Shown: positions 1,102 to 7,943, numbered from the stretch's first letter. The stretch is 39,545 bases of DNA from a virus (IMGVR_UViG_2913152634_000006); one strand, 5' to 3'. A program made the numbers and translations. Notes: generated by a model not told the origin, from the sequence alone.

Positions 1102-1440
1102 TCAGCGGGATAATTTTTGGATTGTTTCGGTTGAAACGCGATCTCCCTCCGAATTGCAGGAACCATCAAGAGAGAGAGCCGGAGAAATTTGCCCGACCTC
1201 CGGCATCGTTTCATCTGTTGATAACCAATAAGCATACTTCTTAAATTTAGGGTGTTTCGTAACCTTAAGTAAGGCACCCTCTGTTACTTGCTTCCCCCTC
1301 ACCTCATAGTTAGTTACCGTCCCATAAGGCAGCCCAACACAATCCGCAAACTCCTGGCGGGTCATACCTTCTGCTTCACGAATCAGGCGAAATTTTTCAC
1401 CCATGCTTGACAAAGATGCCATATCGGGCATATCCTCCAT
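1102..1440 (-). CDS. Immunity repressor (P2 C-type, XRE-family HTH)
   Basis: ORF track 1102..1476; HTH-like segment MTRQEFADCVGLPYGTVTNYE; start placed at internal ATG (MEDMPDMASL...) at 1440, ATG at 1476 is the alternative; transcribed divergently from cox as in the P2 immunity switch. Confidence 0.7.
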   Translation of the reverse strand: MEDMPDMASLSSMGEKFRLIREAEGMTRQEFADCVGLPYGTVTNYEVRGKQVTEGALLKVTKHPKFKKYAYWLSTDETMPEVGQISPALSLDGSCNSEGDRVSTETIQKLSR

Positions 1441-1480
1441 CGCAACATGCCACATCGGGCACAAACATAAAAACACTCAA

Positions 1481-1510
1481 ATAAGCCGATATAAGCCATT
1501 TTGAGCCATT
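1481..1510. promoter_or_regulatory. Candidate operator: three tandem direct 10-bp repeats (ataagccgat / ataagccatt / ttgagccatt) in the repressor-cox intergenic region
   Basis: Directly read; P2-type C repressors bind direct repeats flanking the early promoter; a TATAAG -10-like hexamer lies within the repeats about 45 bp upstream of the cox ATG. Confidence 0.4.
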
Positions 1511-1535
1511 CGAACGAATTAGGGAGATTACCACA

Positions 1536-1823
1536 ATGAGCGAATCAGAGCTTGGGGGGTTCATTCAGGTAGCACCATATCCACTTGAAGCGGTGCCATA
1601 TCAACTATTCGCCAAGATGATCGGCCGCAAGGAATCCACAGTCAGAACCATGATTGACGCAGCAAAGCTACCGACAATTGACTTTGTGAAACCAGGTTCA
1701 CTAAAGACGCGTGCATCAGAAAACTGGGTATATCTGCCAGCATTTAACGAAGGCATGCGCAAAGCGTTTTTTGAGCAACCGAAAGAACGCCGCGACGCAT
1801 GGTTGTTGTGGCTGGGACTTTAG
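1536..1823 (+). CDS. cox: Cox-like excisionase / early transcriptional regulator
   Basis: 95 aa; C-terminal NWVYLPAFNEG...RRDAWLLWLGL closely resembles recalled P2 Cox (YWVYLPAWNNG...WLMWLGL); position immediately right of the repressor, divergent. Confidence 0.8.
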   Translation: MSESELGGFIQVAPYPLEAVPYQLFAKMIGRKESTVRTMIDAAKLPTIDFVKPGSLKTRASENWVYLPAFNEGMRKAFFEQPKERRDAWLLWLGL

Positions 1824-1829
1824 TCATAA

Positions 1830-2036
1830 ATGACCAGCCATATCATCAGTGCCATTCTGATCCTTGTTTTTATTGAGATAGGCGTAATAGAGATCTATTT
1901 GTTTCGCAAGTTAACGGGACATGAAGAACGCTTTATTGAACTCAGCATTGAATATATCGCTGCTTATACCAAAGGACTTTTCCCGGCAGCTATTGGGGCG
2001 ATGTTTATAGCGTTTGTTATCTGGTTTATCGGGTGA
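1830..2036 (+). CDS. Small hydrophobic protein (two predicted TM helices), function unknown
   Basis: 68-aa ORF, strongly hydrophobic (ILILVFIEIGVIEIYLF ... IGAMFIAFVIWFIG); starts 7 nt after the cox stop. Confidence 0.4.
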   Translation: MTSHIISAILILVFIEIGVIEIYLFRKLTGHEERFIELSIEYIAAYTKGLFPAAIGAMFIAFVIWFIG

Positions 2037-2288
2037 GAAACCTGACAACCCACAACTACTGCAATGAGGGTAATTATGTGTGGCATGGACAAATTGGACC
2101 TTATGTTAATTGTAATACTATCAATTAACTTCGGTTACCTCTTAAGCGGCGCAATTCTCATGTGCGGAGGCAAACGAAAATGAACCAGCAGTCCGCAAAA
2201 CGTGAAAACAATGCGATGCGATTTAATCGCAAATATTTTGAGTTCGGCCTCTATGCCGGAATAATTAAATCTGTACAGAGTCTTTAAC

Positions 2289-2630
2289 ATGAAACAGCAA
2301 CGTAATTCACGCTTTCGCAATGGTGCAGAACGCCACGCTAACCGTTTTGCTACCAGTGCATCACGCAGCAACATCCGCTACAGCCTGAGTGATACACACG
2401 CAACGCCGGATGGCTACCCAGTAAAACAAATCGGCGAGCATGCCTGGCTGATTGAGAAAGCTGGAATCGTGATCCACAAATGCCCACGCAATCCGTTTAC
2501 CGGAAACCGCATTTTTGCTCTAAGCAGTGGCGACAATCAGTTCGGGCAGGATTTCACATTATACGAAGCACTTCGCACGGTTGATCGTCTGCTTCGCGGG
2601 CAAAGTTTTATTAAACAGGCTGATTTATAA
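2289..2630 (+). CDS. Hypothetical early protein
   Basis: 113-aa ORF, ATG 1 nt after the stop of a possible 35-codon upstream ORF; no family recognised with confidence. Confidence 0.5.
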   Translation: MKQQRNSRFRNGAERHANRFATSASRSNIRYSLSDTHATPDGYPVKQIGEHAWLIEKAGIVIHKCPRNPFTGNRIFALSSGDNQFGQDFTLYEALRTVDRLLRGQSFIKQADL

Positions 2631-2640
2631 CAGGTGCTTT

Positions 2641-2928
2641 ATGACCAAAGACCATGCACAAGGTGTATTTATCCGTTTTATTGATTTTCGCGGTGAATTG
2701 TTATTACGTGCATCCGCTATTGACGGAGTGACTCCGGCGGGTAAAAACGGAGCCGACGAAGCCACTTACGTTTATCTGAACGGCACGCGACTGCTTGTGG
2801 AACTTCCGTACCAGACCGTACGAGAAATCATTAGCGAAGCTGAAAAGGCACGCCAGGTTAATGGCGATGAACCCTATATCGAAATTATTTGTATGGATTC
2901 AGAAGCTGAAATACAGAAAGCAGATTAA
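2641..2928 (+). CDS. Hypothetical early protein
   Basis: In-frame ATG at 2641 preceded by GGTG (MTKDHAQGVFIRF...); the ORF-track start at 2527 would overlap the upstream gene by about 100 nt, so the shorter form is preferred. Confidence 0.5.
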   Translation: MTKDHAQGVFIRFIDFRGELLLRASAIDGVTPAGKNGADEATYVYLNGTRLLVELPYQTVREIISEAEKARQVNGDEPYIEIICMDSEAEIQKAD

Positions 2929-2939
2929 AGGGCGTTGTG

Positions 2940-3182
2940 ATGGGCAAAGAATATAAAACTCTCATTAACAAAGCACTTGAGCGTTTTTATTTTCGCTTAA
3001 GTGCATCAGGCGCTCATGCTGAACGTGCGGCCCGTGACTCATTGACCAGAGCAATCCGAAGTCTGTATGACGTGGCTTTTTACGCTGATGATCTGGATGC
3101 ACTTAACGAACTTTCCGAGCTGATCTGTGCCGCAGAATGCGGGGAACATATTGAACCGTATAAGCTGGGGAATATCGCATGA
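2940..3182 (+). CDS. Hypothetical early protein
   Basis: 80-81-aa ORF (GTG 2937 or ATG 2940), follows the previous gene by 9-12 nt. Confidence 0.5.
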   Translation: MGKEYKTLINKALERFYFRLSASGAHAERAARDSLTRAIRSLYDVAFYADDLDALNELSELICAAECGEHIEPYKLGNIA

Positions 3183-3292
3183 GTATATTTATCTCATGGC
3201 TTGTTCTGATTATTTCGGTGGCCTGCGCTATTGGGATTATGCGAATTATTCATTCAATAAAAAAGATTGAACGCTTTTTCACTGGCGAATAA
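3179..3292 (+). CDS. Possible 37-aa membrane peptide (MSIFISWLVLIISVACAIGIMRIIHSIKKIERFFTGE)
   Basis: ATG overlaps the upstream stop (ATGA); single hydrophobic helix; below the ORF-track size cutoff, found by hand translation. Confidence 0.3.
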   Translation: MSIFISWLVLIISVACAIGIMRIIHSIKKIERFFTGE

Positions 3293-3378
3293 CAGAGCAA
3301 ATAAAACCACAGATTAAATAAGAAAATGTAAAAACAATCCGCATTCGCGGAGGTATTCGCACACGCCAAGGAGGCGTA

Positions 3379-3582
3379 ATGGCAATTAAGCATTTTCCTG
3401 TCGTTCGTTTTACCTCCAGAGGGCGTGAATACGAAGTCGACGAACGCCTGATTACCACAATCGACAAACACCGTTCAGAAAAGGATGCACATCACATCTA
3501 TCTCACTGACGGCACTTACTTCTGCGCCACGAATGTGGTGCGGGTGAACCTTATCCGACAGGTACAGGAGTCACGCAGATGA
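3379..3582 (+). CDS. Hypothetical early protein
   Basis: 67-aa ORF with a strong SD (AAGGAGG) 6 nt upstream of the ATG. Confidence 0.55.
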   Translation: MAIKHFPVVRFTSRGREYEVDERLITTIDKHRSEKDAHHIYLTDGTYFCATNVVRVNLIRQVQESRR

Positions 3583-4120: not shown

Positions 4121-4242
4121 GAAACCAGAACATGCACACACAAAAAAACCGCTTGCCATGCCGCAATCAGTCAGGTTACATTTCCGCTGCACCTCATAAA
4201 ACGGGTGCCGGGATTTCCACCCCGCTGACAACTACAGCGCAC

Positions 4243-4265
4243 AACCGCGCCAGCGGTTTTTTTGT
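4243..4265 (+). terminator. Terminator-like hairpin (aACCGCgccaGCGGTt) followed by a T7 run inside the early region
   Basis: Directly read 6-bp GC-rich stem, 4-nt loop and ttttttt; lies in a 320-nt stretch without a convincing CDS. Confidence 0.35.
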
Positions 4266-4442
4266 GCGTACTGTATCGCCACGTCTTTTTCGCACACGAA
4301 TTATGGTGGGGCGTACGGGGCCGACTTCGGTCGGGCCGGGTTCTGTAGTTGCCGGTTGTGGAAACCCTGTACGTCTCACCACCCCGAGTTTTCCACCTCT
4401 GGATGGTGAGTTTTCAAAACTTGCAACTACAGAGGCCACACC

Positions 4443-4673
4443 ATGGCAAACCGCAAACAGCACCGCGCTATCGCGGAGCGTCGTCACATCCAGACTGAAA
4501 TCAACCGCAGACTTTTCCGCGCATCACGCGTCGCGCAAATCATGCACATCAATATGCTGCATGAGCGCAGCCACGCACTATCAAACATCTATTCCGCCGC
4601 TGTTTTCAGCTATCTGGCGGATGATCTGCACGAGCTTCAACAGCTCATCCAGCAGCAAAACAAACTCCATTAA
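4443..4673 (+). CDS. Hypothetical early protein
   Basis: 76-aa ORF with helical, protein-like composition; preferred over the overlapping 205-aa ORF 4132..4749, whose translation is S/T/P/R-rich and looks off-frame. Confidence 0.45.
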   Translation: MANRKQHRAIAERRHIQTEINRRLFRASRVAQIMHINMLHERSHALSNIYSAAVFSYLADDLHELQQLIQQQNKLH

Positions 4674-4745
4674 TTCCTGTTCCGGGCCTTTCCTGCACCT
4701 TGCGGCGGGAGGCCTTCGCACATCTGTAACAAGAGGATTGCCGCA

Positions 4746-5111
4746 ATGATTCTCGCCAACGACTTTCTTGAATACCTGCTCAACACAGAGCGTGATCTTG
4801 CCGTTCACGTGCGTGAACGTTATGACATGTACCTGAAATCCCTGCCTGTACCGCAGCTCGCTGACGGAAAGATTGTTATTGATGGTCGCTACATGATTGA
4901 CAGCCACGAGGGAAATTACAGGCTTTACCGCATTGAAGGTGGCACCCCGTCCGTTATTGGCATTTACCAGCGCCCATCCTCTGCAATCGTCGATGTGATT
5001 GCCGACAGCATCCGCATCACACATCGCCATGCCGACACAGAAGACACCGTGCTGGAAATTCAGCGGCTGGCTGCCGTCTGCCGCGACACCCTGAATGGCA
5101 TGACGAAGTAA
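4746..5111 (+). CDS. Hypothetical early protein preceding the replication gene
   Basis: 121-aa ORF, ends 6 nt before the gene A start. Confidence 0.55.
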   Translation: MILANDFLEYLLNTERDLAVHVRERYDMYLKSLPVPQLADGKIVIDGRYMIDSHEGNYRLYRIEGGTPSVIGIYQRPSSAIVDVIADSIRITHRHADTEDTVLEIQRLAAVCRDTLNGMTK

Positions 5112-5117
5112 ATCACT

Positions 5118-7943
5118 ATGACGGCAGAGTACATCAGGGACTGGCAACAACCGCGCCACGCAGTGGGACGTGAAGGAACGGGGATCCCCGTTCCTGAATC
5201 TGCGCTTTCCTCCTGGCTGGATGCCTACCGGGCAGAGAACGAGCGCCGCCAGGAAATGGCTGATGCGGCGTTCTCCGCCACGCCGCTGGGCAACCTGATT
5301 AATAAAAGCCTGGACGCACAGGAAAAACAGGACAAAACCATCACACTGGCAGGAGACGCCAGAAAACAGGCACGCGGCGCGGTGGATGAAGCCATGGCCT
5401 CGCTGCGCCTGCTGCCGTCCTATCTGCGCGATCCGCTTATTCGCCACCTCTCCTTCCTGCGCAAAAAACAGGAAGTCGATCGCCGGAAAGGCAAAAAGAG
5501 CTGGCAGGCTGAACGCTACGCGCGCGGAACCCTGCGCAAAATATTCGAACGTCTGGACCGCACCGACCACCGCTGGCTGACACCGGGTTATCGCTCCCTT
5601 GCCGGACGCGAACGCCTGGATGATTTGCTTTACCTGCCGCAGCTCAACAAGCACCAGATACAGACGCTGGCCACCATGACGGCGGCGATGTTCAGCAGCA
5701 CCTTCGAAAAACTCTGCGATGGCTTTGGCGCGACTGATGGCGAACTGACCATGGATGTAACGCTGAAGGCGTATCAGATGCTGGCCCGCATGGCGTTACA
5801 CCTGCACGCCATGCCTCCACATTATGACGCACTGACAACAGACAAAGACCGGAGGAACGAACCGGACACGGAGCTGCTGCCGGGCGCAATCCTTCGCCTG
5901 ACCTGTGCGGAATGGTGGAAACGCAAACTGTGGCTGTTACGTTGCGAGTGGAGAGAAGAACAACTCCGCGCCGCCTGTCTGGTTTCCAGAAAAACATCAC
6001 CCTATCTGAGCCAGGACGCGTTAAGCGAGTTTCGCGCACAGCGCGAGAAAACACGCGATTTCCTGAAAAGTTTCATGCTGGAAAATGAAGACGGGTTCAC
6101 GATTGATCTCGAGACAGTGTATTACGCGGGAGTAAGTAACCCGGTTCACCGTAAGGCAGAAATGATGGCCACCATGAAGGGACTGGAACTTCTGGCCGAA
6201 GCCCGTGGCGACAGAGCGGTGTTTCTGACCGTCACCTGCCCGTCAAAATACCACGCCACAACGGAGAACGGTCATCCGAACCCCAAATGGAACGGGGCCA
6301 CCATGCGCGACTCCAGCGATTACCTGGTTAACACGTTTTTTGCGGCGGTCCGCAAGAAACTGAACCGCGACGGCCTGCGCTGGTATGGCATCCGCACGGT
6401 GGAGCCTCACCATGACGGCACCGTGCACTGGCATATGATGGTCTTTGCTCATCCGGAAGAAATCGACACCATTGTGTCCCACACCCGCGATATTGCCATT
6501 CAGGAAGATCGTCACGAGCTGGGTGATGATATTACCCCACGCTTTAAGGCGGAGTACGTCGACGGCTCAAAAGGCACACCGACCAGCTACATCGCCACCT
6601 ACATTGGGAAAAACCTGGACAGCCGTGCCGTGGATGGCATCGACCCGAAAACGGGCAAGCCACGCGTTGACCACGAAACAGGTAAATCAATGGCCGAGAG
6701 CGTGGAGCGCGCCATCGGCTGGGCGCGCCTTCACCGGGTCCGTCAGTTCCAGTTCTTTGGCATCCCCTCCCGTCAGGTGTGGCGTGAACTGCGCCGCCTT
6801 GCCAGCCAGATGGCACGCAATCCGGAAGGCCCGCAACGGCTGAAAGATGATGCAATGGATGCGGTACTCGCTGCCGCCGATGCCGGGTGTTTTGCCACCT
6901 ACATTGAAAAACAGGGTGGCGTGCTTGTTCCACGCAAGGACTACCTGATTCGCACCGCCTACGACCTCGCAGATGAGCTGAACGATTACGGCGAACAGAG
7001 CGTACAGATTTACGGGATCTGGTCACCACTCATCGGGGAATCCTCCCGTGTGTGCACGCATCCGGATAACTGGAAGTTGGTAAGACGTAAACCAGAACCA
7101 GAAGACAACGCCCACGAAAATGGTTTTGACCTTCAGGGCGGCCCTGCCGCCCCTTGGACTCGTGGCAATAACTGTCCCCGTGTACAGGAAACAGGCAACA
7201 GCGGGACAGAACAGTCGAAAGAACGGCCTGCACCGTGGCCGCAGCTTCCTGACGGCGTTGAAGTGAACGAATGGATGCGCTCACTGAAACGGCACGAACG
7301 CCGGGCGCTGATGCGTTCGCTTCGTGACAAACAGGCAAAAAACAGCAGTGATGAAATGCAGAGCTGGACACAGAGCCGCAAACAGCAGCGGCCTTTGCCT
7401 GATAACCACGAATTACTCGCTAAAGAATGGCGGGAATCTGCCGAATCTCTCGGCCTGCATATCGGTGAACAGCAGATGCAGCACCTGTTACGGGGAGGCA
7501 GCCTGTACGTTGACGGCAGCATCATTGCACCGCAGGGATTTGAAATTGTACGCAAACCGGATACCCGCCCGGCCAGCCGAATCACGCAGCTCTGGCAGCG
7601 CCTGAGCCGTAATCACGGCGTAAGCAGCACAGAGATCCGTCATAACCCGGTCGCCAGCTATCTGGCACAGCTGGGGGCATCAGACCCCGAAGCCGCCGCA
7701 CGTCTGGCATCCACACTTCAGCAGGACCAGAACACCATGAAAACCCCCGTTACCGTGCTTTCTGACATGCTGCGCGCCATCCGTGACGCAGAGCACGCAC
7801 AAAGAATCAATGAAACCACTGAACGCGCCCGCCACAAGGCTACTTTGCTCCAAAAGAGAGGCAAACAGCACTTTAGTAATCAAAATGATGATGAGAAAAA
7901 ACAATTGCAAAGTTGGATATGCCTTTTCCATCATGAGGGATGA
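5118..7943 (+). CDS. A: Replication initiation endonuclease A (HUH rolling-circle initiator)
   Basis: 941 aa; HUH motif in GTVHWHMMVFAHP and paired catalytic tyrosines YIATYIGKN (Y-x3-Y) as in P2 gpA; position after the early operon; longer than P2 A (recalled 761 aa), with the 3' end running into AT-rich DNA. Confidence 0.85.
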   Translation: MTAEYIRDWQQPRHAVGREGTGIPVPESALSSWLDAYRAENERRQEMADAAFSATPLGNLINKSLDAQEKQDKTITLAGDARKQARGAVDEAMASLRLLPSYLRDPLIRHLSFLRKKQEVDRRKGKKSWQAERYARGTLRKIFERLDRTDHRWLTPGYRSLAGRERLDDLLYLPQLNKHQIQTLATMTAAMFSSTFEKLCDGFGATDGELTMDVTLKAYQMLARMALHLHAMPPHYDALTTDKDRRNEPDTELLPGAILRLTCAEWWKRKLWLLRCEWREEQLRAACLVSRKTSPYLSQDALSEFRAQREKTRDFLKSFMLENEDGFTIDLETVYYAGVSNPVHRKAEMMATMKGLELLAEARGDRAVFLTVTCPSKYHATTENGHPNPKWNGATMRDSSDYLVNTFFAAVRKKLNRDGLRWYGIRTVEPHHDGTVHWHMMVFAHPEEIDTIVSHTRDIAIQEDRHELGDDITPRFKAEYVDGSKGTPTSYIATYIGKNLDSRAVDGIDPKTGKPRVDHETGKSMAESVERAIGWARLHRVRQFQFFGIPSRQVWRELRRLASQMARNPEGPQRLKDDAMDAVLAAADAGCFATYIEKQGGVLVPRKDYLIRTAYDLADELNDYGEQSVQIYGIWSPLIGESSRVCTHPDNWKLVRRKPEPEDNAHENGFDLQGGPAAPWTRGNNCPRVQETGNSGTEQSKERPAPWPQLPDGVEVNEWMRSLKRHERRALMRSLRDKQAKNSSDEMQSWTQSRKQQRPLPDNHELLAKEWRESAESLGLHIGEQQMQHLLRGGSLYVDGSIIAPQGFEIVRKPDTRPASRITQLWQRLSRNHGVSSTEIRHNPVASYLAQLGASDPEAAARLASTLQQDQNTMKTPVTVLSDMLRAIRDAEHAQRINETTERARHKATLLQKRGKQHFSNQNDDEKKQLQSWICLFHHEG

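Follow-up and report, generated by a model that had tools for sequence, protein, structure and literature searches.

Small reading frames in the predicted early operon of a P88-like prophage and their relation to the DUF4761 gene

The small reading frames and their coding potential

The viral DNA stretch IMGVR_UViG_2913152634_000006 was analyzed at its full length of 39,545 nucleotides (nt) and is referred to as the window throughout. Between a gene for a hydrophobic protein of 68 amino acids (aa) and a gene of the DUF4761 family it contains a gap of 252 nt, which is tiled by two small open reading frames (ORFs), ORF-A and ORF-B. A third frame of 37 aa follows a gene of the DUF4754 family further 3' on the same, plus strand (Table 1). 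ORF-B starts with ATG, encodes 35 aa (MNQQSAKRENNAMRFNRKYFEFGLYAGIIKSVQSL) and ends with TAA at 2285-2287, and the single base C2288 separates this stop from the ATG of the DUF4761 gene at 2289. A first-pass annotation of the window had described ORF-B with 35 codons and a stop 1 nt before the next ATG, and its coordinates are exactly borne out by the sequence. The same annotation had set the start of an overlapping hydrophobic 35-codon frame at about 2077. This frame is real and encodes 35 aa (MCGMDKLDLMLIVILSINFGYLLSGAILMCGGKRK), while its conserved ATG lies at 2076-2078 and its TGA stop at 2181-2183. Here, the start of ORF-B overlaps the stop of ORF-A as ATGA (2180-2183). The hydrophobic frame is already open from an ATG at 2064, which would yield 39 aa; this start was rejected, since it has no Shine-Dalgarno (SD) site (+0.7 kcal/mol) and is unconserved. 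The 37-aa frame, which had been proposed as well, is present as described, near-invariant across the phage group and annotated by the NCBI Prokaryotic Genome Annotation Pipeline (PGAP). Its ATG overlaps the DUF4754 stop, again as ATGA (3179-3182).

Short ORFs are frequent in all six frames of this DNA, with 103 of at least 20 aa within the first 6 kb. Nevertheless, two tandem ATG-initiated ORFs of at least 35 codons were obtained in this 252-nt gap in only three of 5000 dinucleotide-preserving shuffles.

To judge whether the frames are coding, ORF-A was compared among four alleles, namely those of the window and of L027, L029 and L031/L063 (loci from IMG/VR and from Escherichia coli JP538; related loci are cited by our own L labels). 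At 60-63% aa identity and a DNA divergence of about 33%, all four comprise 35 codons without any indel, begin with MCG(L/M)DK and end with K(R/Q)K, and every divergent allele overlaps the following cistron by ATGA. The ATG at 2076 sits five bases 3' of its GAGGG motif, and in the divergent alleles this position reads AAGGAG (-8.5 to -9.2 kcal/mol). Compared with the window, the three other alleles reach a proportion of synonymous differences (pS) of 0.60-0.63, which is near saturation, and a proportion of non-synonymous differences (pN) of 0.24-0.28. The ratio of non-synonymous to synonymous substitution rates (dN/dS) is 0.22-0.29, and the excess of pS over pN is significant (Fisher p 0.002-0.01). 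The remaining plus-strand frames over ORF-A contain stops and give no comparable signal. The antisense frame that mirrors the signal has a stop in the window, and such mirroring is expected from shared wobble positions. We conclude that ORF-A is probably the genuine gene of an orphan single-pass membrane peptide.

ORF-B is preceded by an SD site that lies outside the 1st percentile of random positions; within the operon only that of a 67-aa gene is stronger. Over codons 1-27, comparison with distant homologues delivered pS values of 0.59-0.94 and pN values of 0.15-0.36 (Fisher p <0.0001 to 0.02). The other plus-strand frames over ORF-B contain stops and lack a comparable signal, and the minus-strand frame that mirrors it is interrupted by two stops in every allele. 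Since pS exceeds pN in this frame across lineages, the ORF-B frame is likely to be coding. Its product is a basic peptide with the conserved motif R-x-YFE-x-G-x-YAG, for which an AlphaFold2 (AF2) model gave a single helix at moderate confidence (predicted local distance difference test, pLDDT, 73). With a grand average of hydropathy (GRAVY) of -0.69 it falls outside the small membrane proteins. Inside ORF-B a 6-bp inverted repeat (TGCGAT...ATCGCA, 2212-2231) has a weak terminator-like score on both strands. Among genomes of the window's own clade, rare variants of both ORFs fall on deeply conserved sites, and many of them are perhaps assembly errors. Taken together, SD strength, substitution patterns and the shuffle result argue against chance ORFs.

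Two of the three products, those of ORF-A and of the 37-aa gene, have the features of small single-pass membrane proteins, which do not exceed 50 aa and form a single hydrophobic helix of some 20 residues. The best 19-residue window of ORF-A reaches a Kyte-Doolittle hydropathy of 2.13, its N-terminus is acidic and its C-terminus basic (KRK), and the AF2 model consists of one helix over residues 4-32 (pLDDT 82.6). Its invariant residues include C2, G3, D5, K6, D8, S16, N18, F19 and G20, and the alleles share a small-residue spacing, G20-xxx-(S/A/G)24. Translation of ORF-A would start at its own SD site. The product would most likely span the inner membrane once, with its N-terminus (MCGxDKxD) facing outwards and its C-terminal K-R/Q-K facing inwards, an orientation that we infer from the basic KRK end. 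Conservation of S16-x-N18-F19-G20 together with G20-xxx-(S/A/G)24 in the middle of the helix suggests that ORF-A may act through helix-helix packing, and its partner might be ORF-A itself, the 68-aa membrane protein or a membrane protein of the host.

The 37-aa peptide (WP_000021652.1 in PGAP, "membrane protein" in P88) has a best 19-residue hydropathy of 2.68. It is of the same length and nearly invariant in most related loci, including distant ones such as L034 (MSIFISWLALVISVFCAIGIVRIIDSLKKIERFFTGE), and is on record from Salmonella and Shigella as well. It is predicted to be a single-helix peptide of the membrane type, a second and wider-spread one that would be coupled by ATGA to DUF4754. 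For both ORF-A and the 37-aa gene, the case made by their sequences appears solid, whereas ORF-B looks translated and constrained, yet evolutionarily unstable.

Junctions and translational coupling

At all three junctions the stop lies at or within a few nt of the following start, namely as ATGA at 2180-2183 and 3179-3182 and as TAA-C-ATG at 2285-2291. The downstream cistrons differ in their own initiation signals. ORF-B has a strong SD site (-9.5 kcal/mol) and can initiate independently, and that of the 37-aa gene is intermediate (-5.5 kcal/mol). In contrast, DUF4761 is without an effective SD site in the window. At the junction CTT TAA C ATG (2282-2291, plus strand), in which the ORF-B stop lies 1 nt 5' of the DUF4761 start, the anti-SD pairing amounts to -2.4 kcal/mol, which equals the random mean, while P88, Chuche and Shae_phiSM reach -6.1 kcal/mol at their DUF4761 genes. 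The difference can be seen directly 5' of the ATG, where these three phages carry (C)GGAG and every window-type haplotype carries ACAGAG. This loss of the DUF4761 SD site in the lineage of the window suggests termination-reinitiation coupling.

We therefore regard the delivery of ribosomes to DUF4761 as the clearest candidate role of ORF-B, because its own SD site is strong and it stops 1 nt before a DUF4761 ATG that has lost its SD site. Ribosomes would load at the ORF-B SD site or arrive from ORF-A across the ATGA overlap, terminate at the TAA at 2285-2287 and reinitiate at the ATG at 2289.

Overall, we assign a probability of roughly 0.7 to the reading that all three ORFs are small genes of early lytic growth which are really translated and packed stop-to-start, and that ORF-B couples DUF4761. 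This reading builds on ORFs, SD sites, junctions, conservation, purifying selection, helix predictions and distribution, all of which are directly supported. The first-pass annotation had suspected real small proteins whose genes are coupled to their neighbours, and the conservation, the substitution patterns, the SD sites and the tight junctions speak for this view.

Prophage setting, distribution and annotation

From position 1500 to 3400, the window is 99.5% identical at the DNA level to the Xuanwuvirus P88_4B11 (over 1901 nt) and 96.9% identical to phage PhiR44_2. P88 itself reaches 92.8%, restricted to the right-hand 57% of this query. Based on these identities, the window can be assigned to a P88-like prophage of E. 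coli (Xuanwuvirus, P2-family, Peduoviridae). ORF layout, Pfam matches and the annotation of relatives agree with the early operon of P2-like phages, in which an integrase gene and a divergent repressor gene precede cox. ORF-A, ORF-B and the 37-aa ORF belong to the early lytic operon that extends from cox to the putative replication gene.

Table 1. Features of the early region, with positions counted from the first base of the window.
Feature	Position	Strand	Basis
Integrase gene	1-1020	minus	ORF layout
Helix-turn-helix repressor gene	1102-1476	minus	ORF layout; divergent from cox
Promoter-like site TTGACA-18-TATCCT	1407-1436	plus	Consensus scan, 10/12 matches
cox (Cox-family excisionase/repressor), first gene of the early operon	1536-1823	plus	Pfam Phage_Cox, E=2.2e-22; Cox in the annotation of relatives
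68-aa hydrophobic protein gene, directly 5' of ORF-A	1830-2036	plus	phrog_14475, E=2.8e-40; GRAVY 1.20; PGAP-annotated
SD site GAGGG of ORF-A	2066-2070	plus	-6.1 kcal/mol anti-SD duplex; random mean -2.35
ORF-A, 35 aa	2076-2183	plus	
SD site GGAGG of ORF-B, within the 3' end of ORF-A	2166-2170	plus	-9.5 kcal/mol
ORF-B, 35 aa	2180-2287	plus	
DUF4761 family gene, 113 aa, 3' partner of ORF-B	2289-2630	plus	Pfam PF15958, E=2.1e-69; PGAP-annotated
DUF4754 family gene, 5' partner of the 37-aa gene	2940-3182	plus	Pfam PF15946, E=2.8e-54
37-aa gene	3179-3292	plus	
941-aa ORF, position expected for the replication gene (putative)	5118-7943		ORF layout only

The promoter-like site falls between the repressor gene and cox, where the early promoter (Pe) is expected. 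Judged from the P2-type layout, it would be the Pe upstream of cox. The family matched by the 68-aa protein, phrog_14475, carries no function assignment in PHROGs. A comparison of DUF4761 with PDB sequences delivered noise only (E >= 0.056). Further 3' in the operon, ATGA-type overlaps also join genes of 67, 81 and 99 aa. Beyond the Ead/Ea22-like 99-aa gene and 5' of a 76-aa ORF (4443-4673), two adjoining RNA genes lie inside the early operon with Rfam matches at gathering level, an isrK Hfq-binding small RNA (4189-4263, 63.6 bits) and a C4 antisense RNA (4299-4386, 80.5 bits), both on the plus strand. This pair resembles a regulatory RNA module of the P1/P7-type C4 or Gifsy isrK-like kind within a P2-like phage. 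Both RNA genes are covered by a 205-aa ORF (4132-4749, plus strand), and a 357-aa ORF (4581-5654, minus strand) runs antisense to a 121-aa gene and the 941-aa gene; the two long ORFs look spurious.

The exact peptides of ORF-A and ORF-B each occur on at least 1000 contigs. Among 5426 complete E. coli genomes, 234 carry a 255-bp segment over the two ORFs, always at 95% identity or more, while the DUF4761-DUF4754 block downstream was found in about 1400 genomes. This difference in numbers indicates that the segment is an optional module at a variable junction. Every ORF-A locus has the 68-aa gene directly 5', and the converse fails. In our view, the slot that separates the 68-aa gene from DUF4761 is a hotspot at which cargo is exchanged. 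In L028 (IMGVR_UViG_2874920711_000009, about 2170-3550), an insertion sequence element, which by our reading of an orfA-like ORF probably is of the IS3 family, breaks the 3' end of the 68-aa gene and leaves ORF-A and ORF-B intact. In L035 (2218-2628), an unrelated 136-aa ORF (MNKQQKSNTNNAQLLVQPEDK...), which itself begins with the MNKQQ start module, lies between a truncated 68-aa gene and DUF4761. A third arrangement is found in L063 (E. coli JP538, NZ_AP025180.1, 1647-2424), L031 and L032: about 430 nt are inserted between ORF-B and DUF4761 and bear, on the opposite strand, a 78-aa gene that PGAP annotates. ORF-B reads into the insertion, and PGAP flags DUF4761 as frameshifted in JP538.

The small frames had been called unannotated, which is correct for RefSeq as far as ORF-A and ORF-B are concerned. 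In a 99.8%-identical E. coli prophage, PGAP places no coding sequence between the 68-aa gene and DUF4761, and none of 40 sampled carriers has one in this gap. In contrast, the 37-aa gene is listed by PGAP, and the phage records, GenBank and UniProt hold both other frames. ORF-A and ORF-B are gp42 and gp43 of Escherichia virus P88_4B11 (NC_049391; YP_009877431.1 and YP_009877432.1), with exactly the same coordinates, identical peptides and the same place between the 68-aa gene and DUF4761. The record of phage PhiR44_2 (PV340564) likewise annotates both in this place, with one residue differing from the peptides of the window. Both are viable phages and carry the two ORFs intact. As hypothetical proteins, the peptides are also deposited in GenBank (ART17483.1, ART17484.1) and UniRef (A0A0K5DAA2_ECOLX, A0A0K4FFT0_ECOLX). 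Thus RefSeq PGAP leaves a hole of 252 nt over two conserved small genes that phage records call, and the three frames are essentially ordinary small phage genes, already databased as hypothetical proteins.

For ORF-A, the searches brought up no relatives outside these prophages. A search of phages by tblastn with ORF-A and ORF-B recovered two near-identical phages and otherwise noise, and protein database searches with padded 35-aa sequences and alignments returned E. coli prophage variants only. An alignment scan for ORF-A in species-representative genomes gave 76 pattern matches, none of which was confirmed; consequently, the ORF-A family appears to be absent from the species-representative genomes scanned.

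Alternative readings and known systems

Several observations weigh against the preferred reading of translated genes with ORF-B as coupling cistron. First, ORF-B is dispensable or labile. P88 and Chuche are without both ORFs, and in L027 and L029 ORF-B is missing as well, with ORF-A joined straight to a DUF4761 gene starting with MNKQQ(C/R)N. ORF-A is missing in Shae_phiSM, Chuche and L033-L035, and since these relatives keep the 68-aa gene, it is not essential. Second, ORF-B varies within the clade of the window. Non-synonymous alleles are common (L, R, S or I at residue 24, K or Q at residue 7), and a 1-nt deletion allele shortens the peptide to 27 aa in 11 of the 234 E. coli carriers. However, eight of these 11 records share a length of 5,067,659 bp, stem from chicken isolates and probably represent one strain, which leaves about four independent genomes. 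Third, the dN/dS tests draw on few and short sequences. Finally, neither ORF-A nor ORF-B matches a Pfam, PHROG or NCBIfam family, and a profile of ORF-A searched against 1.84 billion protein representatives found its own cluster only, with a single representative at 50% identity. The function of ORF-A thus cannot be transferred from a relative. In the literature we found nothing on DUF4761, nothing relevant on Xuanwuvirus and no paper containing the peptide sequences.

The first-pass annotation had made conservation of the small frames in related prophages the touchstone of its proposal. This holds for ORF-A, with 35 codons in four alleles, and for the 37-aa gene. ORF-B, in contrast, goes part of the way towards the refutation that this annotation had named: some relatives lack it, others have it fused or in a longer form, and 11 of the 234 carriers have it frameshifted. 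The case for ORF-B as a functional peptide in its own right is therefore weaker than the case for ORF-A.

The alternative that survives best concerns this instability: ORF-B might be left over from a gene fission in which a 1-nt indel severed an N-terminal extension from DUF4761. It might still be translated and feed ribosomes to DUF4761, while the peptide itself would be functionless and drifting. In the Citrobacter phage Shae_phiSM (L005, 849-1307) and in L033 (2219-2677), 27 ORF-B-like codons are in frame with DUF4761, one 1-nt indel away from the arrangement of the window. The long DUF4761 protein of Shae_phiSM (WOZ57157.1, 152 aa) begins with 27 residues homologous to ORF-B (MN.Q...R.YFE.G.YAG), with pS far above pN, and the phage has no ORF-A, whereas the window holds a separate 35-codon cistron. 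Within this fused protein the Pfam model covers residues 48-152 only, so that the ORF-B-like extension lies outside the domain, and the PF15958 model has no match in ORF-B. Further, residues 1-7 of ORF-B (MNKQQRN type) equal the start module of DUF4761 in L027, L029 and L034, and the many non-synonymous alleles, the frameshift allele and the relatives without ORF-B would all suit a drifting remnant. Descent of ORF-B from the sequence that forms the N-terminal extension of DUF4761 in related phages is indeed the likely history under either reading. By contrast, an origin as duplication of the DUF4761 5' end was rejected, since the similarity is significant over residues 1-7 (MNKQQRN) and not beyond them (p about 0.5).

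What such a remnant explains less well is the age of the separate frame. In L031 and in E. coli JP538, a frame matches ORF-B over all 35 codons (...YAGKVKSVSTI) before it continues to 62 aa. The last 8 codons of ORF-B, IIKSVQSL, are matched in frame by KVKSVSTI of L031, and pS of 0.82 versus pN of 0.32 over the 35 codons argues that the stand-alone frame is old and constrained. Moreover, the core motif is unaltered in the common alleles, and the SD site is strong. We therefore consider a functionless fission product rather doubtful, though worth keeping in mind. Whichever applies, one sequence occurs in three states depending on the phage, as N-terminal extension, as separate coupling cistron or not at all, which makes it a small and clean natural example.

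For ORF-A, one might speculate about a membrane-damaging, toxin-like peptide, such as a type I toxin, a small holin or a division inhibitor, that arrests or permeabilizes the host early in lytic growth. Hok, Ldr and TisB-type peptides are of similar size and likewise combine a single hydrophobic helix with a basic C-terminus. Besides this likeness of ORF-A, its location fits, because the early-lytic operon is repressed in a lysogen and toxicity of an encoded product would be tolerated there. However, the stand-alone architecture with an antisense RNA was not found: Rfam gave no match at 1400-3500 and the promoter scan no antisense promoter-like site. ORF-A instead lies within an operon, is linked by ATGA to the next cistron and has no separate promoter architecture. 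In addition, it is unlike any known family in Pfam, PHROG, NCBIfam or the search of 1.84 billion proteins, and its conserved motif of polar and small residues would point to specific packing rather than to bulk membrane damage. Such a toxin-like action thus seems unlikely to us. For the small genes in general, a dispensable accessory function of early lytic growth is the likeliest role, and like translation, membrane insertion, topology and dependence on coupling it is one that we infer from sequence.

The junction between ORF-B and DUF4761 invites another idea, namely that a +1 frameshift at CUU UAA C (2282-2288), similar to that of prfB, partly rejoins a split ORF-B/DUF4761 gene. The products would be the 35-aa peptide, the 113-aa DUF4761 protein and a 149-aa fusion equivalent to the in-frame version of Shae_phiSM. 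The site of prfB, which encodes release factor 2 (RF2), consists of a CUU-UGA-C shifty stop and an SD-like AGGGGG one spacer codon upstream of the CUU (PMC13245932). The window shares with it the CUU-stop-C heptanucleotide, fourth-base C included, and a downstream gene in the +1 frame. Here, the fused frame is open (...QSL-N-MKQQ...), and in-frame fusions of ORF-B and DUF4761 do occur naturally. However, the stop is UAA instead of UGA, and the SD-like stimulator 3 nt upstream is absent (GUACAG-AGU here versus AGGGGG-UAU in prfB). Conservation is poor too: two haplotypes, L017 and L065, have A in place of the fourth-base C, the motif is confined to the near-identical clade, and L031 reads through with a different sequence. 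As reinitiation at the adjacent ATG is simpler, we regard frameshifting as very improbable.

Least credible of all, and largely refuted, is the view that the frames arose by chance in a spacer that codes for nothing or that the true feature lies elsewhere, in an antisense 79-aa ORF (2135-2374) or an RNA element: the abundance of short ORFs in six frames, the empty gap in PGAP-annotated RefSeq genomes, the open antisense frame over ORF-B in the window and the weak inverted repeat would allow it, but the rarity of tandem tiling among shuffles, the purifying selection specific to the plus-strand frames and the conserved SD sites contradict it. The antisense ORF itself was rejected, since pS about equals pN in the open antisense frame and L031 interrupts it. 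As to an RNA element, no Rfam family was found across the ORF-A/ORF-B region, and its folding is unexceptional (z = -0.77).

The preferred reading leaves current understanding unchanged; it would matter more if a defined host target were found for one of the peptides, or if frameshifting proved true. Translational coupling at stop and start codons that overlap or adjoin each other (ATGA, TAAnATG) is familiar from trpE-trpD and trpB-trpA of E. coli and from many phage operons. The junctions described here share the ATGA at ORF-A/ORF-B and at DUF4754/37-aa and, at ORF-B/DUF4761, the TAA-C-ATG together with the absence of a downstream SD site. Unlike in the trp-type cases, the 5' cistron ORF-B has just 35 codons and is homologous to an N-terminal extension of the 3' protein in other phages, and the coupling at this locus is a predicted one.

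With regard to their products, ORF-A and the 37-aa peptide resemble small single-pass membrane proteins such as AcrZ, MgtS, MgrB and Kil of phage lambda. They share the small size, the one helix and the basic end that would face the cytoplasm, and, like other members of this class, they are missed by standard annotation. The class of such proteins of at most 50 aa, both bacterial and phage-encoded, has been reviewed (PMC12648545). In sequence, ORF-A and the 37-aa peptide are unrelated to its characterized members, and they belong to an early-lytic operon of a phage rather than to a stress regulon of the host. The two peptides may be added to the single-helix membrane peptides that phages encode for early lytic growth, a class for which few targets have been identified.

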